Notes under the pieces: generated by a model
Told to the model about the DNA's origin: nothing
Seen by the model: only the letters and a program-made list of their open reading frames with translations
Database searches by the model: none
Assembly: GCA_938003925.1 (NCBI GenBank)
Contig: CALKWQ010000023.1
Span: 243,799-307,798 of the forward strand
Direction: 5' to 3'
DNA from: an uncultured bacterium
GTDB lineage: Bacteria; Patescibacteriota; Patescibacteriia; Patescibacteriales; UBA12465
DNA: 64,000 bases
Position numbers and translations under genes: made by a program
Shown: positions 40,303 to 60,470 of the stretch, in pieces
Position numbering within the stretch: the stretch's first letter is position 1
Layout: the number at the start of each line of letters is the position of its first letter

Positions 40303-40307
40303 AATGT

Positions 40308-42086: not shown

Positions 42087-42100
42087 TTAGTGATTAAACA

Positions 42101-42640: not shown

Positions 42641-42655
42641 TTAGTGATTAAACTC

Positions 42656-42690
42656 AAACCTCCCCCTATCTTTGGGGGAGGTTTTTTGTT
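42656..42690 (+). terminator. rho-independent terminator after pilin copy 2
   Basis: Same hairpin as 42101-42136: aacctcc / ggaggtt plus T6. Confidence 0.7.
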
Positions 42691-42716
42691 TGGGTGCTTA
42701 TGCTATACTTAGTAAT

Positions 42717-43709: not shown

Positions 43710-43717
43710 CTAACTTT

Positions 43718-44173
43718 ATGTTTACTGTAGAGATTATTAATTTAACTAAACAAAAGGCGCCCTTATCAACGCTTAGAGCCGCCACTCTTTTTGCGGCGAA
43801 ACGTTGGCGCTTGCGGGGCGAACTGTCGGTAGTATTGGCCGGTGATCGGCGCTTGCAATCTTTAAATCGGGATTTTCGACAGCTAGATAAGGTTACAGAC
43901 GTTTTGTCTTTTGCTGCGCCCATAGGAGCCGAAGGAGCTCTAGGTGAAATCTTCATTAATCTATCCGATTGTCGCCGGCCCTTTAAATACCGGGAAGTAT
44001 TGGCAGCGAGGCCGACTTTCAATTATCTTTTATTGTTTTTATTGCTCCACGGTTTGTTGCATTTAGCCGGTTATGACGATGTTTTGGAAGTAGATAGGCG
44101 TGCGATGGTAATAAAAGGTGAAAAGATGATGAAAGAGTTGATAAAAAATGGTATAATTAAAGAGAAGTTTTAG
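43718..44173 (+). CDS. ybeY: rRNA maturation endoribonuclease YbeY
   Basis: DVLSF and the metal-binding motif HGLLHLAGYDD. The last His of the canonical H..LHL.GYDH is Asp here. Confidence 0.85.
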   Translation: MFTVEIINLTKQKAPLSTLRAATLFAAKRWRLRGELSVVLAGDRRLQSLNRDFRQLDKVTDVLSFAAPIGAEGALGEIFINLSDCRRPFKYREVLAARPTFNYLLLFLLLHGLLHLAGYDDVLEVDRRAMVIKGEKMMKELIKNGIIKEKF

Positions 44174-44176
44174 ATT

Positions 44177-45556
44177 ATGATTCGCCGTCGTTGGTTATTG
44201 GTATTTTTATTAGTCTTAGCTGGTGCCATGCCGGCTTTTCGTCGTGATGCCCAGGCTTCGTTGAGTCATAATATCCGGGGTTTGGCGGATTCTTTATATG
44301 GTTATATTAGCTTTAATTGTCTGGATGATGATTTTGCCGGCCGTTTTCCTTTCATCTTTACTTTTCGTTTTAACGTTCCCGCCTGTTCTTTGTCCAACCA
44401 TGGTGTTAACCTCGGTTTAGATAACAAGTTTACCGGGCAGGCCTGGAATCCGACTTTAGGTTATATTGATATGGATCCGGCAGGGCCGCCGCCGGATAAT
44501 TATGCTTCTACCAATGCCCATTGCCAGAGTCCTTGCAACGCCAGTAATTGCCTGTCTTGCTATAATGAAATTGATCAACGAGTCTACGGTTGGGCACGTC
44601 AAGCGGTTACCGATGGCGAGTGGATTGAATTAAATAGCGCAATTAATCCACCTACCACGATGACTAATTATCTAGCCCCTAATCCTGGTATTTTTTCCGG
44701 CTATGCTTCCAGTTCTTTTGGTGCTATCAGTTTCAATTGCACTAATGACGGCAGTTGCGGCACTTTTGATTACAAGGTTTATTTGTGGAAGTTGGAATTG
44801 GAGGCAATGTCAGCGCCTAACTGGAGTTTTGCCGAAGCTTGTAGTGGTGGTGCCAGGAAGGCTGTGTTTAAATGGTCTCGTCGTGGCGGTACCCAGAGCG
44901 CTTATCGGGTAATCGTCAATACTGTTAATAGCACCTCTAGTCCAGTATTTGATTCGGGTAAAATTTATGGTGCGGCTTCGCAATTAGTTTGTCCCGGAGC
45001 TACTTGCGTTAACACTATAGATAGCTCAATTTTCACCCCAGCCTATAATACTACCTATTACTGGTGGCTACAGCTTTGGAATCTTGATGACGAGCCGACG
45101 GAATATTTTCAGTTTAATACCAATGTCTACGGCGCAGAGTCTTTGACTGATAATAAGCTTTATAATCAAACGGTAAATCCCGATGATAATTATCTGACTT
45201 TTACTACTTATCGCCACGAATTCCCGACGCCTTTTTTTACTTGGACTCCGTTTGAGCCTATAGTCAGCAGCAGCACCGAATTCATTAGCAACTCCGCCTA
45301 TTATTCCGGTGTGGGCCCGGGCACGTCTCAACCCTGTGTCGGTGGTAATTGCACTTTATTATGGACAGCTTCTGACCCGGTGGCTATTATCAGCAGTACT
45401 AATACGCCGACCACCAGCATCATCTTTGGTAATCGTCGCCCTCAGACGGTGTCGCTAACGATAACCGACCAAGATCAATATATTTGTTCTATGACTTCAC
45501 CTACTCTAACGATTAATTTTGAATTACCGATTTGGAAAGAGGTTAAGGCGCAATAA
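44177..45556 (+). CDS. secreted Cys-rich protein heading the minor-pilin gene run
   Basis: Signal peptide (…AMPAFRRDAQA). About 20 Cys. Repeated G(Y/A)ISFNC and YGWA motifs. The first minor pilin gene starts 15 nt after its stop. Confidence 0.55.
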   Translation: MIRRRWLLVFLLVLAGAMPAFRRDAQASLSHNIRGLADSLYGYISFNCLDDDFAGRFPFIFTFRFNVPACSLSNHGVNLGLDNKFTGQAWNPTLGYIDMDPAGPPPDNYASTNAHCQSPCNASNCLSCYNEIDQRVYGWARQAVTDGEWIELNSAINPPTTMTNYLAPNPGIFSGYASSSFGAISFNCTNDGSCGTFDYKVYLWKLELEAMSAPNWSFAEACSGGARKAVFKWSRRGGTQSAYRVIVNTVNSTSSPVFDSGKIYGAASQLVCPGATCVNTIDSSIFTPAYNTTYYWWLQLWNLDDEPTEYFQFNTNVYGAESLTDNKLYNQTVNPDDNYLTFTTYRHEFPTPFFTWTPFEPIVSSSTEFISNSAYYSGVGPGTSQPCVGGNCTLLWTASDPVAIISSTNTPTTSIIFGNRRPQTVSLTITDQDQYICSMTSPTLTINFELPIWKEVKAQ

Positions 45557-45570
45557 TAATTTGTTTCTAC

Positions 45571-46086
45571 ATGTTGAAAATATTTAAACAACTCAAGCAA
45601 CCACAGCCGGCCTTTAGCTTGATTGAGATTATGGCAGTATTATTGATTGTCTCTTTGGGTATTGTTGGTACTGCTAATTTGGCTGTTCAAAGTATTCAGG
45701 CCCAGACTATTAATCGTGGCAGTATCGTGGCCTATCAATTAGCTCAAGAAGGAATCGAATTGGTTCGGCAAATTCGCGATACCAATTGGATGCAGGGCAA
45801 TGACTGGTCTGACGGTTTAGCTTCTGGCACTTATTGCGTAGACTACAAGTCGCCAGTTCTTAGGGCCGTAGCTGGACCCAATGATTGCGGGTTGTATTTT
45901 GACGCTGATAACTGGTATTTTGCTCCTGCTGTTATTTCTCCGGGGATGCGTTTTAGTAATTTTAGACGGGCAATAGTGATTGATATGGCTAGTTCCAGCG
46001 CTTCGGTGAAAGCGGTGGTTACCTGGGACGATCGGGATAAGGTTTTTCGTTACGAAACTGAAACTGAACTTTATGATTGGCGTTAA
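45571..46086 (+). CDS. minor pilin / pseudopilin-like protein
   Basis: ...QPQPA|FSLIEIMAVLLIVSLGIVG class III signal-like N-terminus. Confidence 0.7.
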   Translation: MLKIFKQLKQPQPAFSLIEIMAVLLIVSLGIVGTANLAVQSIQAQTINRGSIVAYQLAQEGIELVRQIRDTNWMQGNDWSDGLASGTYCVDYKSPVLRAVAGPNDCGLYFDADNWYFAPAVISPGMRFSNFRRAIVIDMASSSASVKAVVTWDDRDKVFRYETETELYDWR

Positions 46087-46663
46087 TTTAAGTCCGGCTA
46101 AGCGCCGGTTATCACGGGGTTTTTCTTTAATAGAGCTGATTGTCAGCATCAGCATTATTGCTTTACTGTCTGGCTTATTTTTAGCCAACTATCGCAGCAC
46201 CAACCGTCGCACTGATTTGGTGATGGCGGCTCAGACACTAGTGACTGATATCCGTTTTGCTCAGGCTAATGCCTTGGGACTAATTAAATATGACGGAGAA
46301 GTCCCGGCTGGCGGTTGGGGTATATACGTTTCTAATACCACTGGCACCACTAAGGGCGGCACCAGTTATACCTTATTTGCTGATGAAAATGATGATCAAA
46401 TCATGAATACCGGCGAAGCGGCTGCTAATTTGGGCGGGAAGCTGATAGATTTGCCGCCTAACATTGTAATTGACCGCTTGACTTTAGGCACTAGCGAGGT
46501 GTCTACGGCCAATATCACTTTTTTGCCGCCGGATCCAATTACACGTTTGCGTGGTAGTGTGGGCACTAGCACCGTCTTGGAGATACGTTTGCGTGAAAAG
46601 GTGAAGGACACCAACAAGACAGTGAGAGTTAATTTTTTAGGTTTAGTAGAGGTGATTGATTAA
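46073..46663 (+). CDS. minor pilin (FimT/GspH-like)
   Basis: ...LSRG|FSLIELIVSISIIALLSGLFL. It overlaps the previous gene by 14 nt. Confidence 0.7.
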   Translation: MIGVNLSPAKRRLSRGFSLIELIVSISIIALLSGLFLANYRSTNRRTDLVMAAQTLVTDIRFAQANALGLIKYDGEVPAGGWGIYVSNTTGTTKGGTSYTLFADENDDQIMNTGEAAANLGGKLIDLPPNIVIDRLTLGTSEVSTANITFLPPDPITRLRGSVGTSTVLEIRLREKVKDTNKTVRVNFLGLVEVID

Positions 46664-47231
46664 TATGTTGAACTACTGCCGTCGCCATCATTTGCATAGT
46701 GGCATCTCTTTAATTGAGGTGCTAGTTTCCACGACTTTGTTCGTGGTTATTTTGCTGGCTATGACCGGTATTTTTAAATTGATTTTAGATAGCCAGCGTC
46801 AAGCCATCGCTACCCAGAACGTACAAGAGAATTTGAAATATTTCTTTGAAGTTATTTCTAAAGAAATTAGGATGGCAAAAAGAGATGGCGGCGAATGCCC
46901 TAACTTATCGTCCAACAAGCGTTTTGCCACTAGCACTAATGCTTACGGTGAGGTTTTGTATTTAAAGAATTATCATGGTGAATGCGTCACCTATTCTTTG
47001 GATGAAGATAATGGTGTCTTGCGTTTCAAAGTAGAAAGAGGAGCTAATGGCGGCTTCTTATCGCCCATGAAGATAGAAGTGAAGGACCTGCGTTTTATCG
47101 TGCATGAAGAAACGGATGAGCAGGCTTATGTCTCTATTAATCTCAGCGCTCAGTCGGTGGGCAGAGAAGCCATGTTTTCCCAGATGCGGGTACAGACCAC
47201 GATTACTTCCCGTTATTATCGAGTTAATTAA
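46656..47231 (+). CDS. minor pilin (PilW-like)
   Basis: ...HLHSG|ISLIEVLVSTTLFVVILLAM. It overlaps the previous gene by 8 nt. Confidence 0.7.
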   Translation: MINMLNYCRRHHLHSGISLIEVLVSTTLFVVILLAMTGIFKLILDSQRQAIATQNVQENLKYFFEVISKEIRMAKRDGGECPNLSSNKRFATSTNAYGEVLYLKNYHGECVTYSLDEDNGVLRFKVERGANGGFLSPMKIEVKDLRFIVHEETDEQAYVSINLSAQSVGREAMFSQMRVQTTITSRYYRVN

Positions 47232-47780: not shown

Positions 47781-50700
47781 GTGCAGAGAAAATTAATTGC
47801 GACAAAAAAAATTAGCTGGGCACCCAAGCTGGGGTTGCTGTTTTTTGTTATGGGTGGGCTGTTTTTCGTTCTCGGTATTCAGCCGTCTCAAGCCGCTTTA
47901 GCTAATTTATACAACAAAGCTACAAGTAGCACTTTAGCGGCTTATGAGTGGAATAATCTGTTGTCCGATTTTGTTACTAAGAATAATGGCGGCGATAGAT
48001 TGGATGGCTACTTCAGTATTAATACGGCGACTTCTTCCACCTATGCTTTAGATATCAATGGTGCTTTGCGCGCCACCAACTTAACAGGCGCTCTGTCTGG
48101 CACCCTGAACGCTGGTAATGTTTCTACCGGTGCCTTCGGTTTAAATACCGGTGGCGGTAATTATAATTTTCCTGCCAATATCGGTATCGGTATCGGTACC
48201 GCCACTCCGGCCTCTATCATCACTCTCGCCAACAATCGCTGGGTGTCTGCTTTAAATAGCACCGGCACTGGTTATGTGAACATGTTTAGAGTGAACGCTA
48301 ACGATGAGATTGAAGTGGGGGGAGCTTTAAACATCGGTCAATTCCAGTTTGCTGCCGATAGCGGTTTTAACACTTTTGTAGATATGCCGGTGACTAATGC
48401 TCCGGCGGCTGGCACTATCATGGGCTACACCATGAAGGTGGATGGGGACAATATTTTAAATGTCTATTCTGAAGCTAATGGTAGCGGCGGTATTCAAAAT
48501 CGTCGCATTGGTATTGGTACTAGTACCCCTGCTTTTACTCTGGATGTTAATGGCATTATCAATGCTTCCGCTCTTTATGTTAATGGCGCTCCTTATATCG
48601 GTAGTCAGTGGACTACTAACGGCACGAGCGTGTATTACAACACTGGTAATGTCGGTATCGGCACTACTACTCCTATCGCCACTTTAGACGTGAACGGGTT
48701 GATTAAGATGCGGACTGCTTTGATTACCGCCAATGAGGATGTAATTAACAAAGGTTATTTGGACTCAGCTTTAGCCAGTACCACCGCCCAAATTATTACC
48801 CAGGTTGCCACCAGTAGTTTCTGGCAGGGCAGCATGGCGGGCAGTATTTATAATGCTAACTCTGGTAGCGTTGGGATTGGGACGACGAATCCGAGTGGGA
48901 AGCTGCATATTACTGATGCTAGTAATACAACGAGGTATGCGTCCTTTAGTTCTACTGGTTTGTTAACCATCAATTTTCAAGATGGTACTGGTAGCATTCC
49001 TTTTCTAACCTTGCAGAATCCTTATGGCAATATGGGTGTTTCTTCGCACATATTGTTTAAGTCTGGTTACGCTGGCACTACTTACGTTGATTCTGGTCGT
49101 ATCACCTTGGGTCATGAAGTTGATTGGACTAGCACGGCTGCCACTAGGGACTCTTATCTCGCTCTTTTTACCTCTCTAGACGGTGCGTTGGGAGAAAAGA
49201 TGAGGATTACGAGCGCTGGTAATGTGGGGATTGGAGTAACTAACCCTATTCATAAGCTTCAAATCAGTTCCGGTAATTTATCTTTAAGTGATGGTAATTT
49301 TATTGATTGGGGTAACGGTAGCACAAGAATTCTTTCAATAACCTCTGTTCCAAATAACAGAATTATGGGATTTGAGACTTGGAACAGCACAACTGGTAGA
49401 GCGGAAAGGATGAGAATAGATGGAGTTGGCAACGTCGGCATCGGGACTACCAACCCCACCGCCAAACTATACGTCAATGGTACTTCCATATTTAATGATA
49501 TTGCCACCTTCACTCAACCAGTAGTAGTGGCCACCCCTATTTTAGGTCCTCATGCTGCTACTAAGAGTTACGTAGATTCTACTATTGCTTCTGCCACTTC
49601 CAGCATTACTCTATGGGGCGGAACAATTGGGGGTAATGTTTGGAATTTAAATTCTGGTAACGTTGGGATTGGGACGACTAGCCCTGGTATTAGCAAATTA
49701 AGAATTGAACATAACGCCTGGACGACATATGGATTAACTTTAAGCAATACCTATACCGGCGGTCGGTCTTGGAATTTGGGCGATGGATTAGCGGCCATGG
49801 GCATGTTTTCTATCAGAGATGAAACCGCTGGTCAGGTCAGGTTGACTATTAATGGCAATGGTAACGTCGGCATTGGTACTACCACTCCTGGCACTAAATT
49901 GACGGTGGTTGGATCAGGTAATTACAGTATTGATGCTGGTAATTATCGCGTCGGCAATGTTGCTACGCCGGTAGCTGCTTTGGATGCGGTTAATAAATCA
50001 TATCTTGATTCCGCGGTTGGCACCGCACAAACCGCCTTTTGGAACATTAACGGTTCTAACCTCTACGCCTCTTCAACCAGTTGGAATGTCGGAGTCGGAA
50101 CCACCGCCCCAGATTCACGCCTTCATATTGTAGGCACCGGCCAACCTCTTTTGCATATTCAAAACTCTAATGGAACCGATGGAATAACCGCCGGAATTTT
50201 ATTTGGAGTTACGAATGCGACTGATTATCAGCAAGCAGGTATATTTTTTGAAAGACTTGGTGGTTCAGCTGAGGGCAGTTTGCATTTCGCCACTAAAAAT
50301 GGTGGCGCTGGTAACGCAACTAAGGCAAATGCAAGGATGACAATAAACGCTAGTGGAAATGTTGGGATTGGAACAACCAATCCAGATGCCAAGCTACAAG
50401 TACAAGGAACTTTAAAGTTACAGAATGTTGTTTCTTCTTCACCTGATACTAATTTTAGAAGAATGATTAATGTTGCTTCGTATAATGGTGGAGGCACTTA
50501 TCGAACTGGTATATTAACTGTTAAATTACCTTCTCCTTTAGCTCATTCAATGGCTAAAATCAAAATTAGTGGTTGGAGTTATGGTCAGGCTTGGGATGTG
50601 ATTGTGTCTGGTTATTTAAATACTACTCAATGGACGCAAGTCGGAGGCACAGTGGTTACAGGTAATCCTCCTTTTAATACCGATCAAATTCGCTTAGTAG

Positions 50701-53700
50701 CTGATAGTGCTTCAGATACTTTCTATATCTTATTAGGCGATGCGGCAACTACTTATGGATATTATGCTAGTATCGGTGTTGATGTAGATAGTATTTACTC
50801 AAACAATCTGCCTTCTACTGGTTGGGATATTTATATTGCTGCTAGTGATCCGTCTTTTGATTATGTAACTACTCCCGCCTCGTCTTTGTATGGTAGTCAT
50901 GGTGCAGATATTAATAACGGTAATGTTTATATTAATGATGCCGTTATTACCTCTGGCACTCCTAAGGCTGCTATTACCAAAGAATACCTCACCTCTTCCT
51001 TAGAAGCTTTTAATTCAGAAACTAATCTATGGAAGTTAAATGGTTCTAACCTCTACGCTTCTACTACTACTTGGAATGTGGGTATTGGTACTAGTAGCCC
51101 AGCCACTAAATTAGATGTCTGGGGTAATATTTATATTAATTCGGCTACACATAATAACACTACTACTCTAGCCTTTGCTACTAATGGTAGTCCCTATCAC
51201 CAGATATTTTCTAATCGGCAAACCGGCGAATTCTCTATAAGGGCTGGCGTTGGCGGCAGTGGCCACTATCTAACCTTTGGTTCAGGTGATGGTTCGGAAA
51301 AAATGAGAATTACTACTACTGGCAACGTCGGGATTGGCACTAACAATCCGGCTGGCTTATTGGAACTGTATAAGGCTGGTTCTAATGCTAACTTAAAGCT
51401 CTATGCTTTTAGCAGCTCTGCTTATGATTCCCAATTGCAATTTTCTGCCAACACTAATGCTGCCGTGGAATATAGCGCTGGTCTAGATAATAATGATAAT
51501 AATTTTAAGATTTACTCTGGTGAAAATGTAAGAGGGACTAATGAGTTCGTAATTAATCCATCGGGCAACGTCGGCATCGGCACCACCAACCCCACCGCCA
51601 AACTATACGTCAATGGTACTTCCATATTTAATGATATTGCCACCTTCACTCAACCAGTAGTAGTGGCCACCCCTATTTTAGGTCCTCATGCTGCTACTAA
51701 GAGTTACGTAGATTCTACTATTGCTTCTGCCACTTCCAGCATTACTCTATGGGGCGGAACAATTGGGGGTAATGTTTGGAATTTAAATTCTGGTAACGTT
51801 GGGATTGGGACGACTAATGCCCTAGAAAAGCTAGATTTAAGAGACGGTAATTTGTATATTTCTGATTCAGATTTGGCAACGAACAGTGCTGGTGGTGCTA
51901 TAAAATTTGGTAGACCCGATGGTTATGCCTCTAATTGGTTGGCATCAATAGGCTCTTATACTACTACTGGCTACGATCGCATAGGTTTAACTTTTAATAC
52001 TTCTTTCGGGACTTCTCAAGAGCGAATAAGAATTACGCCAGAAGGTAATGTTGGGATTGGAACAACAAATCCGACAACGAAGTTGCATATAGAAAATGGA
52101 GTGATAAGGGCAAACAATATAGTAGCCGTTGGCAGTAGTGCCGCCCACCCTACGGGAATTGGATCTTATATAGAACTTTATATGTTGGGTGAAGTGGGAA
52201 GAATTTTGCCTTATGATGGTGCTAGTTATAAAGATTTGGCTATTGGTGATTGGAATGGAGGTAATCCGAATATAATGTTGAAAGTGGGCGGTAATGTCGG
52301 TATTGGAAATGGGTCTCCTTCTAATAAATTGAGTGTTGCGGGTAGTGCAGACTTTTCCGGTAACGTCGGTATCGGGACTACCAACCCCACCGCCAAACTA
52401 TACGTCAATGGTACTTCCATATTTAATGATATTGCCACCTTCACTCAACCAGTAGTAGTGGCCACCCCTATTTTAGGTCCTCATGCCGCTACTAAGAGTT
52501 ACGTAGATTCCACTATTGCTTCCGCCACTTCCAGTATCGCCACTCTCTGGGGTGGAACCGTTGGAGGACATATCTGGAATTTAAATTCAGGTAATGTTGG
52601 TATTGGTGTGGCCAGTCCGGAATCATTATTTGAAGTAGAGCGATCTGCTACTGGGACCGTGGCTACCTTTGACGTTAATACGACTAATAGAGCGACTGTC
52701 CAGTTGAGCGTATTTGATAATTATGCTCAGCTGCAAAGTTACGGTCGCGGGTCTTCTAGCGGTTACTTGTCTATTAATCCTCTAGGTAATAATGTCGGTA
52801 TCGGGACTACTAACCCGGGTTCTTACAAGCTAAACGTTAATGGCAGCACTAATATCAGTGGCAGTTTAAATGTCACTGGCACAACTACCGCCGGAGCCTT
52901 TGTTGGCCCAGTGGTAGGCACAATTAATGCTCGCAACGTTTCTTCCGGGGCTTTTGGCGCTGATGCTGGCGGAGGTAATTTTAGCTTTCCGGCTAATGTT
53001 GGAATTGGGACGACGAATCCTGGTTCTAGGCTGACTATTAATGGGGTTGGGGCTTCTAGTACACCTTTAACCTTGTTGCAGGTGTTTAATATGATTCCTT
53101 ATGCTACAGGCAATGGTCTTGGCGCAGCTCGAATTGAAATTGGTCACGGCACTTTGCATGGTTATATAGAAAGTGCTGCTAATTCTGAGAATAATAGCGC
53201 TGATGGTTATATGGCTTTTGGTACCCGTCGTCCTACTAATAATGTGACTGAGGCAATGAGGATAGATCAATCTGGTAATATCGGAATTGGGACCACTACT
53301 CCGGATGCAAAATTATCCGTTAATGGCGGAGCTACTTTTAATACTGGCGCCGGACTCGCAATTGGTAATGTTGGCAGTTATAATAAATTAATAACTTATT
53401 CTGCTGGTCCCGTTTTTCGTATTTTTACTGGTGGTAGTTACGGTAGTTTTGGCGCTGGCAGTGCTTCTATCGGAGCTTCGTATGCTGCCATATCTTCGCC
53501 TGCGGGCGGGTTAATTGTAGAGGGTAACGTCGGTATCGGCACTTCTAATCCTGGCGCATATCGCTTGAAGGTGGCAGGAGATATGGCTGTTACTGGCACC
53601 TTACAGACTCAGACTGGTTCCGACTTTGCGGAAGAATTTAGTGTAGATTCAGTAATTTTACCAGGTACGGTGGTGGTGATGGCTGATAACGGGCACAAAT

Positions 53701-54005
53701 CGGTTCGAGTCTCAACTGCAGCCTATGATCGCAAGGTTGTAGGTATTGTGTCCGATAATCCCTCTATTATTGCTGGTAGAATTGAAAGCGGACAAAAGGT
53801 TGTGGTGGCTATGATGGGGGTAGTTTCAGTTAATGTCACTAGTGCTAATGGCAAAATTGAAAAGGGGGATTTATTGACTTCTTCTAACCTGCCTGGCTAT
53901 GCCATGAAGGTGACTGAGTTTGCGCCGGGAACTGTAATTGGCAAAGCCTTGGAAGATCTAGTGGGAAAGAAAGGGAAGATTAAGGTGTTGGTAAATTTGC
54001 AGTAA
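47781..54005 (+). CDS. giant (2074 aa) secreted fibre/adhesin-like protein built from about 20 GNVGIGTTxPxxKLxVxG modules
   Basis: GTG start and an N-terminal signal anchor. The G-N-V-G-I-G-T-T-x-P...KL.V.G motif recurs about 20 times and is also seen in phage tail-fibre-like proteins. A distinct C-terminal roughly 150-aa domain follows (GSDFAEEF...VVGIVSDNPSII...GDLLTSS..PGYAMK...GTVIGKALE). Confidence 0.85.
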   Translation: MQRKLIATKKISWAPKLGLLFFVMGGLFFVLGIQPSQAALANLYNKATSSTLAAYEWNNLLSDFVTKNNGGDRLDGYFSINTATSSTYALDINGALRATNLTGALSGTLNAGNVSTGAFGLNTGGGNYNFPANIGIGIGTATPASIITLANNRWVSALNSTGTGYVNMFRVNANDEIEVGGALNIGQFQFAADSGFNTFVDMPVTNAPAAGTIMGYTMKVDGDNILNVYSEANGSGGIQNRRIGIGTSTPAFTLDVNGIINASALYVNGAPYIGSQWTTNGTSVYYNTGNVGIGTTTPIATLDVNGLIKMRTALITANEDVINKGYLDSALASTTAQIITQVATSSFWQGSMAGSIYNANSGSVGIGTTNPSGKLHITDASNTTRYASFSSTGLLTINFQDGTGSIPFLTLQNPYGNMGVSSHILFKSGYAGTTYVDSGRITLGHEVDWTSTAATRDSYLALFTSLDGALGEKMRITSAGNVGIGVTNPIHKLQISSGNLSLSDGNFIDWGNGSTRILSITSVPNNRIMGFETWNSTTGRAERMRIDGVGNVGIGTTNPTAKLYVNGTSIFNDIATFTQPVVVATPILGPHAATKSYVDSTIASATSSITLWGGTIGGNVWNLNSGNVGIGTTSPGISKLRIEHNAWTTYGLTLSNTYTGGRSWNLGDGLAAMGMFSIRDETAGQVRLTINGNGNVGIGTTTPGTKLTVVGSGNYSIDAGNYRVGNVATPVAALDAVNKSYLDSAVGTAQTAFWNINGSNLYASSTSWNVGVGTTAPDSRLHIVGTGQPLLHIQNSNGTDGITAGILFGVTNATDYQQAGIFFERLGGSAEGSLHFATKNGGAGNATKANARMTINASGNVGIGTTNPDAKLQVQGTLKLQNVVSSSPDTNFRRMINVASYNGGGTYRTGILTVKLPSPLAHSMAKIKISGWSYGQAWDVIVSGYLNTTQWTQVGGTVVTGNPPFNTDQIRLVADSASDTFYILLGDAATTYGYYASIGVDVDSIYSNNLPSTGWDIYIAASDPSFDYVTTPASSLYGSHGADINNGNVYINDAVITSGTPKAAITKEYLTSSLEAFNSETNLWKLNGSNLYASTTTWNVGIGTSSPATKLDVWGNIYINSATHNNTTTLAFATNGSPYHQIFSNRQTGEFSIRAGVGGSGHYLTFGSGDGSEKMRITTTGNVGIGTNNPAGLLELYKAGSNANLKLYAFSSSAYDSQLQFSANTNAAVEYSAGLDNNDNNFKIYSGENVRGTNEFVINPSGNVGIGTTNPTAKLYVNGTSIFNDIATFTQPVVVATPILGPHAATKSYVDSTIASATSSITLWGGTIGGNVWNLNSGNVGIGTTNALEKLDLRDGNLYISDSDLATNSAGGAIKFGRPDGYASNWLASIGSYTTTGYDRIGLTFNTSFGTSQERIRITPEGNVGIGTTNPTTKLHIENGVIRANNIVAVGSSAAHPTGIGSYIELYMLGEVGRILPYDGASYKDLAIGDWNGGNPNIMLKVGGNVGIGNGSPSNKLSVAGSADFSGNVGIGTTNPTAKLYVNGTSIFNDIATFTQPVVVATPILGPHAATKSYVDSTIASATSSIATLWGGTVGGHIWNLNSGNVGIGVASPESLFEVERSATGTVATFDVNTTNRATVQLSVFDNYAQLQSYGRGSSSGYLSINPLGNNVGIGTTNPGSYKLNVNGSTNISGSLNVTGTTTAGAFVGPVVGTINARNVSSGAFGADAGGGNFSFPANVGIGTTNPGSRLTINGVGASSTPLTLLQVFNMIPYATGNGLGAARIEIGHGTLHGYIESAANSENNSADGYMAFGTRRPTNNVTEAMRIDQSGNIGIGTTTPDAKLSVNGGATFNTGAGLAIGNVGSYNKLITYSAGPVFRIFTGGSYGSFGAGSASIGASYAAISSPAGGLIVEGNVGIGTSNPGAYRLKVAGDMAVTGTLQTQTGSDFAEEFSVDSVILPGTVVVMADNGHKSVRVSTAAYDRKVVGIVSDNPSIIAGRIESGQKVVVAMMGVVSVNVTSANGKIEKGDLLTSSNLPGYAMKVTEFAPGTVIGKALEDLVGKKGKIKVLVNLQ
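49428..49679 (+). repeat. 252-bp cassette, copy A (encodes GNVGIGTTNPTAKLYVNGTSIFNDIATFTQPVVVATPILGPHAATKSYVDSTIASATSSITLWGGTIGGNVWNLNSGNVGIGTT)
   Basis: It differs from copy B at only two synonymous sites (49445 and 49448). 49449-49679 reads identical to 51585-51815. Confidence 0.9.
51564..51815 (+). repeat. 252-bp cassette, copy B
   Basis: See copy A. The flanks of A and B are unrelated at the DNA level. Confidence 0.9.
52359..52607 (+). repeat. cassette copy C (mosaic)
   Basis: The 5' roughly 140 bp are near-identical to A and B. The 3' roughly 110 bp carry substitutions (catgccgct, gattccact, an extra Ala codon, ctctggggtggaac) that match copy D in the second giant gene. Confidence 0.8.
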
Positions 54006-54014
54006 ATTCTTTAC

Positions 54015-54260
54015 AAATGAATATCCCTGTGTCCGCTTCTACCACTCTTTAGAGGCATTAACAGTCAAGGGGTCCGCGCCAACAAAAACCGCTAATGCCG
54101 GTGGTGTCGGATGACTTGATTTTATCCATCACTAGTCATCCCCCGAAGGGGCGACTAGCAAGAGAAAATCCCAGCGATCAAGCTGGGACTCATTGTCAAG
54201 AAAACAGCGTGCGGCCGTCAGGTACGTACGTTCTAGGAGCGGTCACAAGGATATTCATTT
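54015..54260 (+). ncRNA. candidate RT-associated structured non-coding RNA (retron msr/msd-like or DRT-type template RNA)
   Basis: 54015-54038 pairs with 54237-54260: 22 of 24 positions, including aaatgaatatcc.tgtg against cacaaggatattcattt. The enclosed roughly 200 nt are visibly more GC-rich than the flanks. They contain hairpins 54054-54060/54093-54099, 54132-54158 (ctagtc..cccc gaa gggg..gactag) and 54169-54188 (tcccagc/gctggga). There is no ORF. A 6-bp hairpin plus T5 (54267-54287) lies just before the RT ATG. Confidence 0.55.
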
Positions 54261-54289
54261 TTTAGTAGGGGCTTAATTGCCCTTTTTGT

Positions 54290-55498
54290 ATGTATCAACA
54301 GATTATTGCCCTTAAAAACTTGGAAGCAGCTTATTTGAAAATCGCCGGTGATATGGAATTAGATGGGCGCTCCGGTCGTTATCGGGGCTGGGATAGCTGG
54401 AAAATGGCTGATGTAGAAGTGAGAACTTCAGCTTTGTTGCGGTTAATTAGGGCGGAATTACGCGATTTAAAACCCATTGCTCCGGCTGTACTATTTAAAA
54501 TTCCTAAAAAGAGTAATCCTCAGAAACTCAGAGAAATTTATATCTATAATTGGTCGGAGCGCATCAAGGCCCAGGCTATTTATCAGGTGGTCGAGCCGGT
54601 TTTTGATGCTTATTTTTCCCCTTATCTCTTTTCCTATCGCTCGTCTCACGCAAGTTATTTTGCAGCGCGTAGCGCCGTCAGGCATTACCGTAGATATTGG
54701 CACCGAGATTCAGTGTTGATTGGTGATTTGTCTGACTATTCTAATTATATCCAGCATGACCAGTTAAAAGAGAAAATCAAGAAATTGCAACTAGACAAGA
54801 AAGTTGAAGAGCTGTTATTCTTATTCATCGGCAATGAAGTTATTCGTGATGGCGCGATTGTTAAGCCGTCAGTTGGCTTGGTTCAGGGTGTGCCGTTGAT
54901 TGCTCTGTTTAATAATCTGTATCTAGATGATTTTGATAAATACGTTGGGCAGCGGGCTGATTTTTATCGCCGCGTAGGCGATGATTTGGCTATCTTTGAC
55001 CGTTTGTCTGCACGTTTATTGCCTCTGCGTGATCGCTTAGAGCAGGAGGCTAAAGTCTTAGGTTTGAAAATTAACCAAGACAAGACTGGTTTGCGTTTAG
55101 CCTCTGAGCCCTTTAATTTTCTAGGTTATCATTTTCAAGCTGGACAAGTGTCCTTACCGCCCAATTTCGTTAAGGCCTTAGTTAATAAATGGCGGCAACA
55201 ATTTTCTTACTACGGCAGTCAGCGCCTTGTCCTTAAGAGTCGCATGTTAAAAAACTCTTTACGCCAAGACAGGCAGAATTTACGCGAACAATTGCGGCAG
55301 TTATCTCAGCAGAAGAAGTTGGTCACAGATGAAGCGCAGTTGCGCCGTTTATCTGAAGCTTTTTTTCGGGTTTTGACTCGTTATTTCTTCAAAGATTATT
55401 CACCTCGTCATCGTCGTCTTTTGGCCGGAAAACTTGAAAAGTTAGGTTTAAAATCGGTATACAAACATTTTTTATCAGCTCGTTATGACTCAGATTAG
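54290..55498 (+). CDS. reverse transcriptase, unclassified (not DGR-type; retron, group-II-like or UG-like)
   Basis: RT motifs in order: FKIPKKSNPQKLREIY (1/2), FSYRSSHAS (3), LIGDLSDYSNYIQHD (4/A), GLVQGVPLIALFNNLYLDDFD (5/B), FYRRVGDDLAIF (C; VGDD instead of YADD), GLKINQDKT (6), FNFLGYHF (7). These are followed by a roughly 120-aa basic helical tail. Confidence 0.85.
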   Translation: MYQQIIALKNLEAAYLKIAGDMELDGRSGRYRGWDSWKMADVEVRTSALLRLIRAELRDLKPIAPAVLFKIPKKSNPQKLREIYIYNWSERIKAQAIYQVVEPVFDAYFSPYLFSYRSSHASYFAARSAVRHYRRYWHRDSVLIGDLSDYSNYIQHDQLKEKIKKLQLDKKVEELLFLFIGNEVIRDGAIVKPSVGLVQGVPLIALFNNLYLDDFDKYVGQRADFYRRVGDDLAIFDRLSARLLPLRDRLEQEAKVLGLKINQDKTGLRLASEPFNFLGYHFQAGQVSLPPNFVKALVNKWRQQFSYYGSQRLVLKSRMLKNSLRQDRQNLREQLRQLSQQKKLVTDEAQLRRLSEAFFRVLTRYFFKDYSPRHRRLLAGKLEKLGLKSVYKHFLSARYDSD

Positions 55499-57188
55499 GG
55501 ACAATGTTAAATTATTGCGTCAACGCCGGGCACAAAGATTGGCTAATAAGCCACTGTGGCCCAGTCAAGAGCACTTGGTCTATTTGCGTAATTTTTTTAG
55601 GCGGCAGCATCGCTTGTTGTCGATTAGTTTGATGGCCTTGTTACTGCAGGGACTATTTGAAATCGCTCTGATTGTTATTAGCCACCGGTATCTAAAGAGT
55701 TTTTCTGGTTACGAATTAGCCGTTAGTCGTCGTGCCTTATTTATCTTATTGGTAGTAATGGCGACCGTGTATCTGTTGGCAGCCTTTGCAGCGATTAAGG
55801 GGGAGCGCACCTTGATTGTGCGATTGATTAATGACTTACGTGCCCGTTGGTTTAAGTTGTTTTTATATAAGCGGCGCGAGGAAAATAATTTGGAAAATAA
55901 GGGTATGTTGCTGGCTAAAATCTCTTATCATCTGCCTTTACTCAGCACTGGTCTGTCTAATTCGTTGGCCGGAGTCGTGCGTTGGCTGATGTTTGTCCTG
56001 ATTTTGTTGTTCTTAGCTTTTGTTTTTACCTATAAGCTTTTGTGGTTTGTAGCTGGGGCGGTATTAGTTGGTCTATTGGTTGGAGCGGCTGCTTTTTGGA
56101 TTTCCTATAATTACGTTACCAAAGAAACTACTTTCTATTCCCAAATCATCAGGTTGGTGGATTTTAACTTATCCGACTGGTCGTTTGTAAAACAATATCG
56201 ACGTGAACGGGCGGTAGTGAAGGAGTTTGATCAGTTGGTAGAATTAGATTCATACTTTCGAGTACGCCGCGATCTCTGGCTGCGTTTCAGTATCAGTTTA
56301 GTGTTTGTGCTCTTAGTTTTTATCAGCTTTATGGTCGGTTCTTGGCATAGTCGCTTGGAATACTTTTTCGGAGCCGCTAGCTTGGACGCCAGATTCGTCT
56401 TGGTAATTGCTCTAGTCTATTTTTCTCGTCTACTCTATGAAAGTTTGCGGGTAGGTCTGTATTCCGTACCCTTGCTTTTAGGTCTGAAGCTGGCTATACC
56501 TGATTTTTTGCCGCGGAAACTAGGGGCGGGGAAACTAATTACAGCACCAGCGCTGGTTTTCAGCGCAGCTAAAGCCAAGCTCTTTGCTCGTGATCATAAA
56601 TATCGTCGTTTCAATTTCGAATTTGTGCCAGGCGGGCGCTATGTTATCAGTGGCCCCTCCCGTTCTGGTCGTAGTTCTTTGGCTAAGTTACTGGCCGGTC
56701 AAGCTGTTTATGGCCGTCGCGCCTGGTTAATTAAGGTGGGACGTAGGCGCTATTTCTATAACGAATTTTTTGATAAATACGCGGGCACCTATTATTTTGA
56801 TCCCCACTTTAACAGTGCTCGTTCTTTGTTGGAGGTAGTGGTGGGCAAAGAGAAGACGGCTATTACCCCAGCTGATTTAGCTACCGCTTCTACTTTAGTT
56901 AATGAACATCAGGAGCTAAGGGCCATCTTTTTTGAACGCGAAGACTGGCGTTATCCAGCTAATAGGTTTTGCAATAATCGTAAAAGCGTCTTTTTAGTGC
57001 AGCTGCTTTACTGCTTAATCAACAAGCCCTATTTAGTAATGATAGATAATGAGTGGCTTGAGACTGAAGATGCCGATATTAGCGCTTGGTTGCGCCTATT
57101 GGATCAGTTATTACCGAAGAGCGCTGTAGTGGCCTTCACTTCTACTAATAGAAAATTATTTACTAACCAACATCATCATGAAATTTAA
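55485..57188 (+). CDS. ABC-exporter-like protein (6-TM domain plus degenerate nucleotide-binding domain)
   Basis: It overlaps the RT stop by 14 nt. The N-terminal roughly 340 aa have the ABC_membrane-type six-helix layout. In the C-terminal NBD, Walker A is GPSRSGRSS (Lys to Arg), the signature is FCNNR in place of LSGGQ, and Walker B is YLVMIDNE. Confidence 0.65.
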   Translation: MTQIRDNVKLLRQRRAQRLANKPLWPSQEHLVYLRNFFRRQHRLLSISLMALLLQGLFEIALIVISHRYLKSFSGYELAVSRRALFILLVVMATVYLLAAFAAIKGERTLIVRLINDLRARWFKLFLYKRREENNLENKGMLLAKISYHLPLLSTGLSNSLAGVVRWLMFVLILLFLAFVFTYKLLWFVAGAVLVGLLVGAAAFWISYNYVTKETTFYSQIIRLVDFNLSDWSFVKQYRRERAVVKEFDQLVELDSYFRVRRDLWLRFSISLVFVLLVFISFMVGSWHSRLEYFFGAASLDARFVLVIALVYFSRLLYESLRVGLYSVPLLLGLKLAIPDFLPRKLGAGKLITAPALVFSAAKAKLFARDHKYRRFNFEFVPGGRYVISGPSRSGRSSLAKLLAGQAVYGRRAWLIKVGRRRYFYNEFFDKYAGTYYFDPHFNSARSLLEVVVGKEKTAITPADLATASTLVNEHQELRAIFFEREDWRYPANRFCNNRKSVFLVQLLYCLINKPYLVMIDNEWLETEDADISAWLRLLDQLLPKSAVVAFTSTNRKLFTNQHHHEI

Positions 57189-58419
57189 GTTTAAACATTG
57201 GCGCTGGCTGTGGGCGCCCCTAGTAATTATCTTGGGTCTATTATTACTGGCCTTAGTGGCAAGACAGGGAGGGGCGTTAGTAGAAAAATGGTTGCTTATC
57301 AAAAGTCGGCCAGCTGTCAGCGTTACTACGGTCTTACCCGTGTCAGCCGAATTGCTATTTAATCACGAGCCGGGAGTGGAGATTTTTTCGGAACGGATTG
57401 TTACTGAAATTGGCCAGGCGCAGCAGAGCTTAGAAATTGCGATGTACGCTTTTTCTTCGGTTAAGCTGAAAGAAGCGGTTTATGCTGCTCAGCGGCGCGG
57501 GGTAAAAGTAACTATTATCACAGATTTTCGTAAACGAGAAAATCACGAGGCTTTTTTTGCAGATGCGGTTAGAGACATCAAGCGCTTAGAGGCTGGGGCT
57601 GAAACCGCCAGTAAGACTATTTTGATGCACCATAAGTTTGCTTTAATTGATCGAGGCACCGCCAATCAGAAATTACTATTTGGCGCCTATAATTGGACGG
57701 ATTTACAAGAAAAGTATGATCCCAGTTTCTTGATGGTGAGCACTAGTTCGGAGTTGGTTGCTAGTTTCGGTCGAGAATTTGATCGTTTATTGGCCGGCCA
57801 AGCCGGAACTCAGAAGCTGCGTGACCAGGCTTATCATCCCTGGGATTTAGAGCTTAAGGCCGCTGGCTATACTTCGGAAGTCTGGTTTAGTCCGGGGCGA
57901 GAGGGCGATGGCATTAAGACCAGGCTTTCTTCTTTGATTAATAGCGCTCAACAAGAGATCCAAATTATGATTTGGGACTTTACCGACAAGGAATTAGCAG
58001 TGGATTTAATTCGTCGTGCCCGCCAAGGCGTAAAAGTGACCATCATCACTGATACCTGGAATTTTTACAACCAAAATTCAGTATTCTTATACTTAGCCGA
58101 AGCTAAACAGCGTTATCAGTTAGATAATTTTGAATTAATTGTCGATAAAGTAGGCGGTGAAAAGACCATTGCCGCTGTCAACGCTCCTGATTTAGAGGCT
58201 GACTTTGATCCCTTCTTGCATTTTCACGTTTTGATTGTAGATGGGCAAAAAGTTTTGTTTGGCACCAACAATTGGAGTCGTGCCGGCTCTTATTTCAATG
58301 ACGAGTCAATGATGATTAGTGAAGACCCGGCTGTGGCTGCTGCTTTTCAGGAGGCTTTCAGGTATCAGTATCAACACAATACTACGCCATTAGTGGAGGC
58401 TGGGGTAATTGTTGATTAA
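57178..58419 (+). CDS. membrane-anchored phospholipase-D/HKD-superfamily protein (nuclease-like, two HKD domains)
   Basis: It overlaps the upstream stop by 11 nt. N-terminal TM helix. HKD 1 is HHKFALID...GAYN. HKD 2 is HFHVLIVD...GTNN, with the Lys replaced by His. Confidence 0.8.
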   Translation: MKFKFKHWRWLWAPLVIILGLLLLALVARQGGALVEKWLLIKSRPAVSVTTVLPVSAELLFNHEPGVEIFSERIVTEIGQAQQSLEIAMYAFSSVKLKEAVYAAQRRGVKVTIITDFRKRENHEAFFADAVRDIKRLEAGAETASKTILMHHKFALIDRGTANQKLLFGAYNWTDLQEKYDPSFLMVSTSSELVASFGREFDRLLAGQAGTQKLRDQAYHPWDLELKAAGYTSEVWFSPGREGDGIKTRLSSLINSAQQEIQIMIWDFTDKELAVDLIRRARQGVKVTIITDTWNFYNQNSVFLYLAEAKQRYQLDNFELIVDKVGGEKTIAAVNAPDLEADFDPFLHFHVLIVDGQKVLFGTNNWSRAGSYFNDESMMISEDPAVAAAFQEAFRYQYQHNTTPLVEAGVIVD

Positions 58420-58466: not shown

Positions 58467-59057
58467 ATGTCTGAACAAGCAAAAAGTTCTCTTTCTAGCC
58501 ATCGCCGTGTCTGGCTATTTTCGGCCCTTATTTTTTTCCTGCTAGCTTTAGCCGCCGCTGGCCCCTTAGTTTTTAAAGCTTTCGCTGACGCCAGTTCTGC
58601 TCATGAGCAGGTTATTCAAGCCCGCAATGCTGCCATCAGTGAAGCTATCCTAAATAATGATTATAATGCCTGGGATTCTTTAGTTCAGGATCAAACACTT
58701 AAGCAACAGATTAACTCTAGTAATTTCGAGGCCTTTGCTGAAGCCTATCGTCTTTTAGAGAAGGGCATGATTACCGAGGCAGAGTTACTGAAACGGCAGG
58801 TAGGTATTAAGGAGGAGATGAATCAAAACGCTGTAGTGAGCAGCATGATTGGCCAGGCAATCGTCAATAAAGACTATAACCTGTGGCGCCAAGCCGTGGG
58901 CAATGATTATGCTCAGGGTGTAGTTACTGCTGGTAATTTTGATAAATATGCCAGCTTTCTCCAAGATGTGGAAAAAGGCAGGTTAAATCGCGCCGTTCGC
59001 TATCAGTATGATTTGGGGGTAAAGCAGAAAATGGATTACAGTTCTAGTCGCGAGTAG
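58467..59057 (+). CDS. membrane-anchored hypothetical protein with an internal duplication
   Basis: TGcTATAAT at 58429-58437 and one TM helix. Repeated AI(L/V)N(N/K)DYN.W ... NF(E/D)..A ... EKG segments. Confidence 0.5.
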   Translation: MSEQAKSSLSSHRRVWLFSALIFFLLALAAAGPLVFKAFADASSAHEQVIQARNAAISEAILNNDYNAWDSLVQDQTLKQQINSSNFEAFAEAYRLLEKGMITEAELLKRQVGIKEEMNQNAVVSSMIGQAIVNKDYNLWRQAVGNDYAQGVVTAGNFDKYASFLQDVEKGRLNRAVRYQYDLGVKQKMDYSSSRE

Positions 59058-59252: not shown

Positions 59253-59264
59253 TTTTTGCAATTT

Positions 59265-59825
59265 ATGCTTAACAAAAAAATAATTATTGCCGTCTTGTCA
59301 GTGGTGGTGGTGATGTTAGTAGTAGCTTTGTGGTGGCGCAATGGTGACAAGGAGATTAAGGTGACTGAAGTTAAGGTAACGCCGGAGCAAGTCACTAACA
59401 CCACTCCCTTGCCAGGCGGCAATACCATCAATGAAGAGCAAATTGTAGTGACTGAGGCTGGTACGCCGGTGCAGGTAAATGTGATGCCCAATAATCCCGA
59501 AGCCCCTAAAGCGGTAGTGGTATCAACTAAGAAACTGCCGCAGAGCGCAGTGCAAATCAAGGTGGGTGATAGTAAGTTTGAGCCCTCAACCTTTACCGTG
59601 CAGCCTGGAGCGCCGGTGTCTTTAGCTTTTTCTTCGGTTGATAAAAAAGTTCATGTCATTACTTTTTCTGACCCCTCTTTGGCGGCTCTGTCTTTCGGGG
59701 TGGGGGCCAATCAGACTAAGGCTATGACTTTCAATGCTCCTAGCCAGGCGGGTGAGTATGAGTTCCACTGTGATGTTCCCGGTCATCGAGCAGCTGGAGA
59801 AGTGGGGGTCATGATTGTGCAATAA
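59265..59825 (+). CDS. membrane-anchored cupredoxin (type-1 copper-like) domain protein
   Basis: The first ATG is at 59265. TM anchor, then a C-terminal beta domain with VHVITF...EYEFHCDVPGHRAAGEVGVMIV, giving a His ... Cys-x4-His ... Met ligand pattern. Confidence 0.65.
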   Translation: MLNKKIIIAVLSVVVVMLVVALWWRNGDKEIKVTEVKVTPEQVTNTTPLPGGNTINEEQIVVTEAGTPVQVNVMPNNPEAPKAVVVSTKKLPQSAVQIKVGDSKFEPSTFTVQPGAPVSLAFSSVDKKVHVITFSDPSLAALSFGVGANQTKAMTFNAPSQAGEYEFHCDVPGHRAAGEVGVMIVQ

Positions 59826-59846
59826 TTGTTAACTTATTATATCTCT

Positions 59847-60470
59847 ATGTCTAAATTTCTAACTAAAAATCTACCCGGTAACCAGAAAGCCATCCTCCTT
59901 GCTTTATTAGGTGTAGCTATTGTCTTAGTGGTCCTAGTGGCGATAGATTTGTTTCGTAAACCGGTGGCGGAAACACCGATAATAGAGGGGGCCAATGTTC
60001 CCACTGAGGCTTTACCCGATCAGGAAGATTATCAAGATGTCGTAGCTATGCCTCAAGTGCAGAAAGATGAATTTAAGGAAGAAGTACCAGTAGATATTGT
60101 AGTGCCGGAGATCGACACTCAATTAACCGAGGAACAAAAAAAAGAAATAGCCCTACCGACAGTGACAGTGGCAGCGGCTCCTGGTGTTGAAGCTAAGTTC
60201 CGTAGCTTCCAGATTAAAGCGGAGGGTGGAGCGTTTGTGCCGACCAAAGTTATTGCTAATGCCGGCGATACCGTTCACATTGATTTCACGGCTGTAGATG
60301 GTAATTATGACATTGTATTTCCGAGCTACAACATGATGCAGACAGCTAGCCAGGGTCAGACAAAAATCTTAGAGTTCCAAGCCCTGCAATCCGGCAGCTT
60401 TACCTACTACTGTTCCAGCTGTGGCGGTCCTGAGAGCGGGCCTAAAGGCAATATTATTATTGTGGAATAA
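59847..60470 (+). CDS. membrane-anchored cupredoxin-fold-like protein lacking the full copper ligand set
   Basis: ATG at 59847 and a TM anchor. The C-terminal domain parallels the upstream gene (GDTVHIDFT...FTYYCSSCGGPESGPKGNIIIVE) but has no His/Met after the Cys pair. Confidence 0.5.
   Translation: MSKFLTKNLPGNQKAILLALLGVAIVLVVLVAIDLFRKPVAETPIIEGANVPTEALPDQEDYQDVVAMPQVQKDEFKEEVPVDIVVPEIDTQLTEEQKKEIALPTVTVAAAPGVEAKFRSFQIKAEGGAFVPTKVIANAGDTVHIDFTAVDGNYDIVFPSYNMMQTASQGQTKILEFQALQSGSFTYYCSSCGGPESGPKGNIIIVE

Follow-up and report, generated by a model that had tools for sequence, protein, structure and literature searches.

Between positions 54017 and 58419 of a 64,000-nucleotide stretch of DNA from an uncultured member of the Patescibacteria (contig CALKWQ010000023.1; the whole 64-kb stretch analysed is hereafter called the window), three genes were found which encode a reverse transcriptase (RT), a protein resembling ABC exporters (ABC-like protein) and a protein of the phospholipase D (PLD) superfamily. 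According to the map of open reading frames (ORFs), the RT start is preceded by an intergenic stretch of 284 nt, in which a structured non-coding RNA (ncRNA) is located. Of the four parts of this cassette (ncRNA, RT, ABC-like protein and PLD), the ABC-like and PLD genes supply the two at the membrane. The parts of the cassette, including the motifs at the equivalent positions of an ABC nucleotide-binding domain (NBD), are as follows:

54017-54258 (+): structured ncRNA upstream of the RT gene, ~240 nt
54267-54284 (+): terminator-like GC hairpin followed by a T-run, between ncRNA and RT start codon, found by a consensus scan
54290-55498 (+): RT ORF, 402 aa; its 3' end overlaps the ABC-like ORF
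55485-57188 (+): ABC-like ORF, 567 aa; overlaps the RT and PLD ORFs
56652-56675 (+): GPSRSGRS in place of Walker A, with Arg for Lys
56967-56981 (+): FCNNR, where the LSGGQ signature would be expected, placed by profile alignment to the NBDs of P-glycoprotein (P-gp)
57033-57050 (+): LVMID-N in place of Walker B; the Asp is retained and Asn stands for the catalytic Glu
57132-57149 (+): AFTSTN, H-loop equivalent without His
57178-58419 (+): PLD ORF, 413 aa; its 5' end overlaps the ABC-like ORF
57205-57261 (+): N-terminal membrane anchor of the PLD
57628-57651 (+): PLD motif 1, HHKFALID (HxKx4D), canonical, with GAYN at 57682-57693
58219-58242 (+): PLD motif 2, HFHVLIVD (HxHx4D), variant, with GTNN at 58261-58272

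All motif strings which an earlier note on this DNA had quoted for the two membrane proteins were found at these positions.

The four parts of the cassette are inherited together. RT, ABC-like and PLD genes are collinear in all 58 loci from GTDB and in all metagenome loci with enough flank, and the same order is found in the very distant branches L069 and L073. Overlapping genes are present in nearly every locus and full-length, intact ORFs in all of them. The pairwise divergences of the three proteins correlate with r = 0.93-0.94. Homologues of the ABC-like and PLD proteins stem almost solely from Patescibacteria metagenomes, where they lie on common contigs. The possibility raised in the earlier note, that the homologues might be ordinary ABC exporters unlinked to RTs, thus fails, since RT-ABC-PLD was present at every adequate locus. 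An ordinary pair of ABC exporter and PLD is likewise ruled out by the RT linkage everywhere; the outgroup PLD P0167 with its canonical HKD motifs is not linked to an RT. When 1.84 billion representatives were searched with the ABC-like profile, approximately 90 clusters were obtained at E <= 1e-30, below which there is a sharp fall in score to the ordinary ABC exporters, at about 50 bits. No system composed of RT, ABC-like protein and PLD was found in the literature, most subscription journals lying outside the scope of the search. The cassette is a previously undescribed RT-ncRNA-effector system with two unusual adaptations of its putative effectors.

The ABC-like protein comprises a basic N-terminal helix (aa 1-25), a transmembrane domain (TMD, aa ~46-340) and a pseudo-NBD (aa ~341-567). 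Among the Pfam families, ABC_membrane (PF00664) was matched above cut-off (5.7e-8) and ABC_tran (PF00005) only with E = 0.026, under the cut-off. The AlphaFold (AF2) model of the monomer (pLDDT 80, pTM 0.71) had its best Foldseek matches in MsbA, TmrAB, TAP and ABCB10, which were aligned over the full length (~550 columns) with TM-scores of 0.57-0.72, and in a profile alignment the region of intracellular loop 1 (ICL1) aligns with P-gp and MsbA. The protein is accordingly modelled with a type IV (MsbA/TmrAB-type) exporter fold, with a six-helix TMD and a C-terminal NBD fold. Its layout is that of the half-transporters of this type (MsbA, TmrAB, TAP1/2, ABCB10, TM287/288), with an elbow helix, six long transmembrane (TM) helices and the NBD fold at the C-terminus. 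Unlike these, it carries an additional basic N-terminal helix and a basic NBD, and its gene invariably stands between those for an RT and a PLD. Of the hallmarks of an ABC exporter the window protein has the fold, and it lacks the canonical Walker A, the hhhhDE motif, the LSGGQ signature, the Q-loop Gln and the H-loop His.

The motif states were counted in 52 independent genome-derived cassettes, and the motifs were placed by aligning a profile of 58 homologues to the NBDs of P-gp. In this alignment the family motif 'viDN' falls on 'llDE' of P-gp, LSGGQ is matched by the region around FCNNR, and the H-loop by that around AFTSTN. The Walker B Asp occurs in 52/52 homologues; the following residue is Asn in 51/52 and Glu in none. 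The Walker B motif, given as MIDNE in the earlier note, is indeed non-canonical, but its reading was refined to LVMID-N: the Glu of MIDNE (Glu523) is not conserved and F, L, A or Y is found there in homologues, so that a shifted catalytic base is not present. The LSGGQ signature was found in no family member, and the placement of FCNNR at its position was confirmed. Nor does any family member possess the Q-loop Gln (Asp in 38/52, Asp439 in the window protein) or the H-loop His, two losses beyond those listed in the earlier note. A misalignment of the motifs by eye is ruled out by the profile and structure alignments.

The Walker A motif follows a different pattern. The replacement of Lys by Arg in GPSRSGRS was confirmed for the window protein, whereas Lys is kept in 48/52 homologues and the canonical GxxxxGK[ST] in 40/52. 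Arg is found in 3/52, all belonging to the window's clade, and the P-loop was erased independently in P0016-P0022, L069 and L073. The clade of the window has lost the Lys secondarily, by exchange for Arg. Since catalytic Glu, signature, Q-loop and H-loop are missing family-wide, the ABC-like protein is predicted to be unable to act as a hydrolysing transporter, which bears out the earlier suggestion of a non-hydrolysing protein. Judged by these motifs, the hallmark of the family is an NBD able at most to bind nucleotide, and the window protein appears to have gone one step further. The ancestral protein probably bound ATP without hydrolysing it, because most members retain GxxxxGK[ST] together with the Walker B Asp. 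As each cassette holds a single ABC-like gene, a homodimer would contain two dead sites.

Exporter folds with impaired ATP hydrolysis are known from other proteins. In the degenerate sites of TM287/288, TmrAB and BmrCD, in site 1 of CFTR and in SUR, ATP is bound without being hydrolysed, and SbmA/BacA has the exporter fold without NBD or ATPase; in this group the fold serves as switch, regulator or proton-driven carrier. The degenerate-site heterodimers retain one competent site, in contrast to the two dead sites expected here, and some cassette lineages have no P-loop at all. SbmA/BacA has lost the NBD, which the cassette protein retains in a conserved and basic form. Near-invariant Gln55 and invariant Glu59 were observed in TM1 of the ABC-like protein, and invariant or near-invariant polar and charged residues form the motif DSYFRVRRDLW (aa 255-265) in its intracellular extension; all of them are candidates for a part in gating or coupling. 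Among ordinary relatives, the one nearest in profile score is P0404, a near-canonical ABC exporter with intact Walker A, DE and H-loop. Its gene is convergent with an RVT_1 gene on a 5.3-kb contig (L075, 1709-4905), the two overlapping by 4 nt, an adjacency which may be a coincidence or a hint to the origin of the association of RT and ABC-like protein.

The ratios of non-synonymous to synonymous substitution rates (dN/dS) were 0.04-0.17 for the RT, ABC-like and PLD genes; the ABC value of the pair L027/L057 is an alignment artefact and was left out. For a pair within the Arg clade (L007/L011), the NBD alone gave 0.071 compared to 0.058 for the TMD. The identity in this clade is 0.58 for the NBD and 0.69 for the TMD, with a ratio similar to that of the Lys-type members. 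The pseudo-NBD is under strong purifying selection, also in the clade without the Walker A Lys, and pseudogene-like decay is ruled out by dN/dS and by the invariant columns. The description of the catalytic motifs in both proteins as decayed therefore needs correction: it does not apply to the PLD, in which HxH is fixed (52/52), and in the ABC-like protein the catalytic residues are lost, yet dN/dS of the NBD is about 0.07. The isoelectric point (pI) of the pseudo-NBD is 9.42 +/- 0.29 (n = 58), compared to 5.90 +/- 1.09 for 19 ordinary exporter NBDs, these controls coming from unidentified organisms. The family-specific N-terminal helix is conserved and has approximately 7 Lys/Arg in 25 residues. 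Since both pseudo-NBD and N-terminal helix are basic, the pseudo-NBD may have been converted into a polyanion-binding module, for which the RNA or the cDNA of the RT would be the obvious candidates.

In the PLD protein, Pfam PLDc_2 was matched twice (1.6e-38). The AF2 model (pLDDT 92.8) had its best Foldseek matches in 7e0m and, at E = 1e-16 to 1e-20, in PLD3/PLD4, vaccinia F13 and PssA; the structural matches share only 13-16% identity with the protein. In sequence comparisons both halves are closest to Zucchini/MitoPLD, NucT and Nuc (~1e-25) and far from cardiolipin synthases; the halves thus appear to resemble the Nuc/NucT/Zucchini nucleases more than lipid enzymes. The two-lobed fold of the superfamily is present, and one of the two HxK(x)4D...GxxN motifs is altered. 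Motif 1 is canonical in all members, with H, K and D invariant in 52/52. Motif 2 reads HxHx4D...GTNNWS...NDE in all 52 cassette PLDs, and HxH is also found in the most divergent branches L069 and L073. The nearest PLDs outside cassettes, among them P0167, carry HxK and do not lie beside an RT. As HxH is invariant in the cassette PLDs and the outgroups retain HxK, the motif is derived and not decayed, and HxK plus HxH is a fixed, selected and family-defining state of the active site. The substrate may be a nucleic acid, a lipid head group or another phosphodiester. The single composite site with an altered second motif expected in the earlier note was borne out in this way, and the comparison with homologues which it had proposed shows the substitutions, apart from the Walker A Arg, to be conserved in both proteins (Asn after the Walker B Asp in 51/52, no LSGGQ; PLD His in 52/52).

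One N-terminal TM helix was identified in 52/52 PLDs, flanked by 282 K/R residues on the N side compared to 127 on the C side. By the positive-inside rule, the PLD is predicted to be a single-pass protein with N-in/C-out orientation, the catalytic domain lying outside the cytoplasmic membrane and near its surface. The two-lobed fold is shared with PLD3/PLD4, Zucchini/MitoPLD, Nuc of pKM101, NucT and vaccinia F13. PLD3/4 have an N-terminal anchor and a non-cytoplasmic catalytic domain, as predicted for the cassette PLD, and Nuc and NucT are extracytoplasmic. From these compact enzymes the cassette PLD differs by HxH in place of HxK in motif 2, by its acidic ectodomain and by its constant association with ABC-like protein and RT. 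A PADLOC match to DrmC of DISARM was obtained at 4e-20. DISARM was rejected as an identification, since the cassette consists of RT, ABC-like protein and PLD only, without DrmA/DrmB or methylase, and no DISARM genes are found among the neighbours.

The spacer upstream of the RT encodes a real structured RNA. It is closed by a stem of 25 bp (54017-54041 pairing with 54234-54258) and contains an H-type pseudoknot of 6 bp (54055-54060 pairing with 54093-54098), a small hairpin, a long hairpin, a variable insert, a single-stranded conserved GACUCAUUGUCA..AAAA stretch and a 3' hairpin. The minimum free energy is -117 kcal/mol (z = -8.1). Compensatory changes were found at 49/56 predicted pairs, and 94% of cells are paired, compared to 31-47% in slid controls. 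The pseudoknot, which was absent from the covariance model used to align the ncRNA sequences, shows 100% pairing and covariation at 6/6 pairs across 34 sequences, some of them from distant clades. With the covariance model, the module was located on the + strand just 5' of the RT in ~35 loci. Rfam yielded no family, either at the gathering threshold (whole window) or at E <= 10 (53900-54400), and no second copy of the ncRNA region was found within the 64-kb window. The terminator-like hairpin with its T-run between ncRNA and RT (54267-54284) is also found in the close relatives L007, L008, L009 and L011 and may serve to adjust how much ncRNA is made relative to RT mRNA. In four loci, the 5' module of the ncRNA (the pseudoknot domain) occurs in tandem, as two copies approximately 190-340 nt apart upstream of a single RT (L015, 938-1332; L017, 4152-4545; L032, 4442-4721; L065, 6428-6860).

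The RT was recognized by Pfam RVT_1 (3e-16). Its best matches are group II intron RTs (1.7e-18 with the GsI-IIC RT), and it scores 107 bits with TIGR04416, for which the cut-off is 300. Among the PADLOC profiles, RT (3e-34), RT_UG26 (7e-32), RT_UG17 (8e-20) and RT_UG4 (4e-19) were matched; the RT_UG26 match is partial (profile positions 49-295 of 398), and this profile has no curated cut-off. Invariant in 39 homologues are the catalytic D146, Y226, R228, G230, D231 and D232 of the YRRxGDD motif, K265, and L278, G279 and Y280 of the LGY motif. No endonuclease domain was found in the RT. These matches indicate a compact RT of group-II-intron-like ancestry.

Several classes of RT systems resemble the cassette in part. 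Retrons, in particular those of type I (ncRNA, RT, the ABC-type ATPase PtuA and the HNH protein PtuB), have the same order of ncRNA, RT and effectors. As in the cassette, a long stem of inverted repeats closes their ncRNA, and an ABC-type NTPase fold is paired with an effector of a nuclease superfamily. The effectors of the cassette differ in being membrane-embedded or extracytoplasmic, with a dead ATPase. Assignment to the retrons was rejected since the RT lies outside the retron clade, with 21 bits (1.6e-4) in the NCBIfam profile retron_St85_RT compared to a cut-off of 235, and since no conserved priming G was found. When the ncRNA was compared in silico to a retron msr-msd, the 25-bp closing stem was present, no conserved branching or priming G was found beside it, and Rfam gave no match. 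A group II intron was rejected because intron RNA domains were not found with Rfam and the RT is under the TIGR04416 cut-off, and a diversity-generating retroelement because no variable repeat was found within the 64-kb window. The class 2 UG/DRT RTs (UG26; UG17/DRT10 with SLATT; DRT2; DRT9) are stand-alone RTs of ~400 aa with an upstream structured ncRNA, like the cassette RT. Some UG groups pair with membrane proteins, and a Vsr/YcjD-like endonuclease was reported as partner of UG26 (PMC9226505). The scores with UG26 are only partial and moderate, and the cassette has no YcjD-like endonuclease. No UG group with an ABC-like and PLD pair was found in the literature searched.

The cassette was found in approximately 58 of 185,579 GTDB species representatives and is patchily distributed within the Patescibacteria. 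Its hosts belong to many lineages of this group, to the Omnitrophota and, with one genome (on a 2.96-Mb contig), to the Longimicrobiales. Some genomes contain two divergent cassettes which are 35-60% identical. The flanks are variable, and within the window's clade synteny is conserved. Neighbours of the defence type (AriA, LmuA, PifA, Fic) are scattered; they were counted without a background rate and no enrichment is claimed. Other neighbours are pilins, ECF sigma factors and cupredoxins. The plasmid collection contained no match to the cassette. In IMG/VR no match was obtained with the ABC-like profile and a single one (L072) with the RT, and the phage records yielded only distant retron-type or other RTs; a phage or plasmid origin was rejected on the basis of these searches.

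With some hesitation, and at a confidence which falls a little short of an even chance, we read the cassette as an RT/ncRNA-governed membrane complex which does not hydrolyse ATP and most likely has a role in defence. By analogy with retrons and class 2 UG/DRT systems, the RT would copy a section of the ncRNA. The resulting particle of RT and ncRNA or cDNA would dock where an ABC-like homodimer is basic, on the pseudo-NBD and the N-terminal helix. Without need of ATP, this dimer may serve as a conformational switch or a conduit; among the Lys-type proteins, the majority of the family, it is perhaps a switch that binds ATP without hydrolysis. The switch would control the membrane-proximal phosphodiesterase reaction of the outward PLD and/or the permeability of the membrane, and the output could be abortive infection or a block of entry at the envelope, directed against phages or other mobile DNA. 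Defence fits best because the distribution is accessory, horizontally spread and sometimes duplicated and the layout is retron/DRT-like. Further support comes from the PADLOC scores of the RT on DRT/UG profiles and of the PLD on DrmC. Several points weigh against such a role. Most flanks consist of housekeeping or type IV pilus genes and are not defence islands. cDNA synthesis, complex formation and a phage phenotype are all inferred, and the positive-inside rule is the sole basis of the outward topology of the PLD. It is unusual for abortive-infection effectors to have their catalytic domain on the outside; of the abortive-infection theme proposed in the earlier note, the membrane location stood, and a simple cytoplasmic toxin does not fit the outward PLD domain. 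Moreover, the ectodomains of the PLDs encoded together with these basic pseudo-NBDs are acidic (pI 5.7), which argues against a generic nucleic-acid (DNA) binder.

As the main rival reading, the cassette might instead have no part in immunity and serve an envelope or scavenging function of host-dependent bacteria, with RT and ncRNA as regulator, which we consider possible, though rather unlikely. It could consist in the uptake or remodelling of host lipids, by an ATP-independent, flippase-like ABC fold and a transphosphatidylase on the outer face, or in the processing of incoming DNA by a NucT/EndA-like surface nuclease during type IV pilus-dependent uptake; NucT is a competence-associated nuclease. 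Such a function would suit a cassette found overwhelmingly in Patescibacteria, whose copy in the window comes immediately after a type IV pilus locus (35801-47231, encoding PilM, a PilB-type ATPase, PilC and pilins) and a giant surface-type protein, with conserved synteny in its clade. Pilins and T2SSE/T2SSG recur near other cassettes (11 matches among 150 proteins, a raw count without background rate), and DprA and a ComM-like gene adjoin the cassette of L065. The predicted extracytoplasmic, membrane-proximal position of the PLD and its relationship to NucT and to PssA-type lipid enzymes point in the same direction. However, the low number of genomes with the cassette and its patchiness even within the Patescibacteria are difficult to reconcile with such a function, as is its presence in Omnitrophota and in the large-genome Longimicrobiales. 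Variable flanks and divergent duplicates are typical of accessory genes and not of core physiology, and the obligate RT and ncRNA would be left without a reason. It is improbable that the complex is a nucleic-acid conduit, in which cDNA made by the RT, or an RNA-cDNA hybrid, is passed or presented by the ABC fold to the outward PLD to be trimmed or transferred. The basic pseudo-NBD and N-terminal helix at the cytoplasmic mouth of the exporter fold, a Nuc/PLD3-4-type PLD across the membrane from them, the strict co-inheritance of the three proteins, and Glu59 and Gln55 in TM1 would all be in line with it. It is an inference from architecture, however, and the acidity of the PLD ectodomain speaks against it; also, no ABC exporter is known which carries nucleic acid without an energy source.

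The affinity of the RT to group II intron RTs, the IS3 and IS200/605 transposases adjoining the cassette in L005 and L065 and the spread across phyla would be explained by a domesticated or mobile group-II-intron-derived retroelement carrying the ABC-like and PLD genes as cargo of unrelated function. We regard this as very improbable, since group II intron RNA domains were not detected, the RT is far under the intron-maturase cut-off and without endonuclease domain, and the RT gene follows the ncRNA instead of being enclosed by it. The tight co-divergence of the three proteins is that of interacting partners, and no genome holds copies beyond two divergent paralogues. Plain decay, with the two membrane proteins as relics of an ordinary pair of ABC exporter and PLD lying by chance beside an RT, could draw on the loss of the Walker A Lys in the window's clade and of the P-loop in three other lineages, but is hardly credible in view of the intact ORFs in all loci, the low dN/dS, the invariant HxH, the RT linkage everywhere and the sharp separation of the family from ordinary ABC exporters in the profile search.

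For the complex governed by RT and ncRNA, one further step is conceivable, namely that the cassette represents an unrecognised class of RT system in which a dead ABC fold reads out or translocates the RT-ncRNA or cDNA and passes the signal through the membrane to the outward PLD with its unique HxK/HxH site; we think this unlikely. If true, it would be without precedent in two respects: an RT module would be linked to an extracytoplasmic effector, and an ABC nucleotide-binding domain would have become a sensor of nucleic acid. RT-ncRNA modules such as retrons and DRTs are a rich source of unexpected biochemistry and genome-engineering tools; the cassette contributes a compact RT with its ancestry in group II introns, together with a pseudoknotted RNA that is well defined. 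The pairing of the ABC-like protein with the PLD as putative effectors is new within the literature searched. The ABC-like family may be seen as a natural experiment, in which fold and selection were kept, ATP hydrolysis and then ATP binding were lost and the domain turned basic. A PLD with a strictly conserved His for the catalytic-site Lys is a variant of biochemical interest. The Patescibacteria are uncultured, live attached to hosts and have few recognised defence systems; a membrane-directed RT system in these bacteria bears on their handling of phages, foreign DNA and host-derived material.

Upstream of the cassette in the window lies a giant ORF (47781-54005, +; 2074 aa) with repeats of the GNVGIGTT(N)P type and without Pfam match. 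Homologous giant repeat proteins precede the cassette in L001/L009 and on the IMG/VR contig L072, which is probably a misfiled Patescibacteria fragment since it encodes the same giant repeat proteins as the window. Several contigs with cassettes (L008, L010-L012, L018, L019 and others) are titled 'uncultured Gammaproteobacteria' in the GTDB records, although their genes and relatives look like those of Patescibacteria; the titles seem to be unreliable. Downstream, the cassette of the window is followed by a gene for a 196-aa protein with an N-terminal TM helix (58467-59057, +) and by two genes for cupredoxin-like proteins (59256-60470). The 196-aa protein is encoded beside the cassette in the closer clade only, lies upstream of it in L012 and L013 and is probably not a core component.

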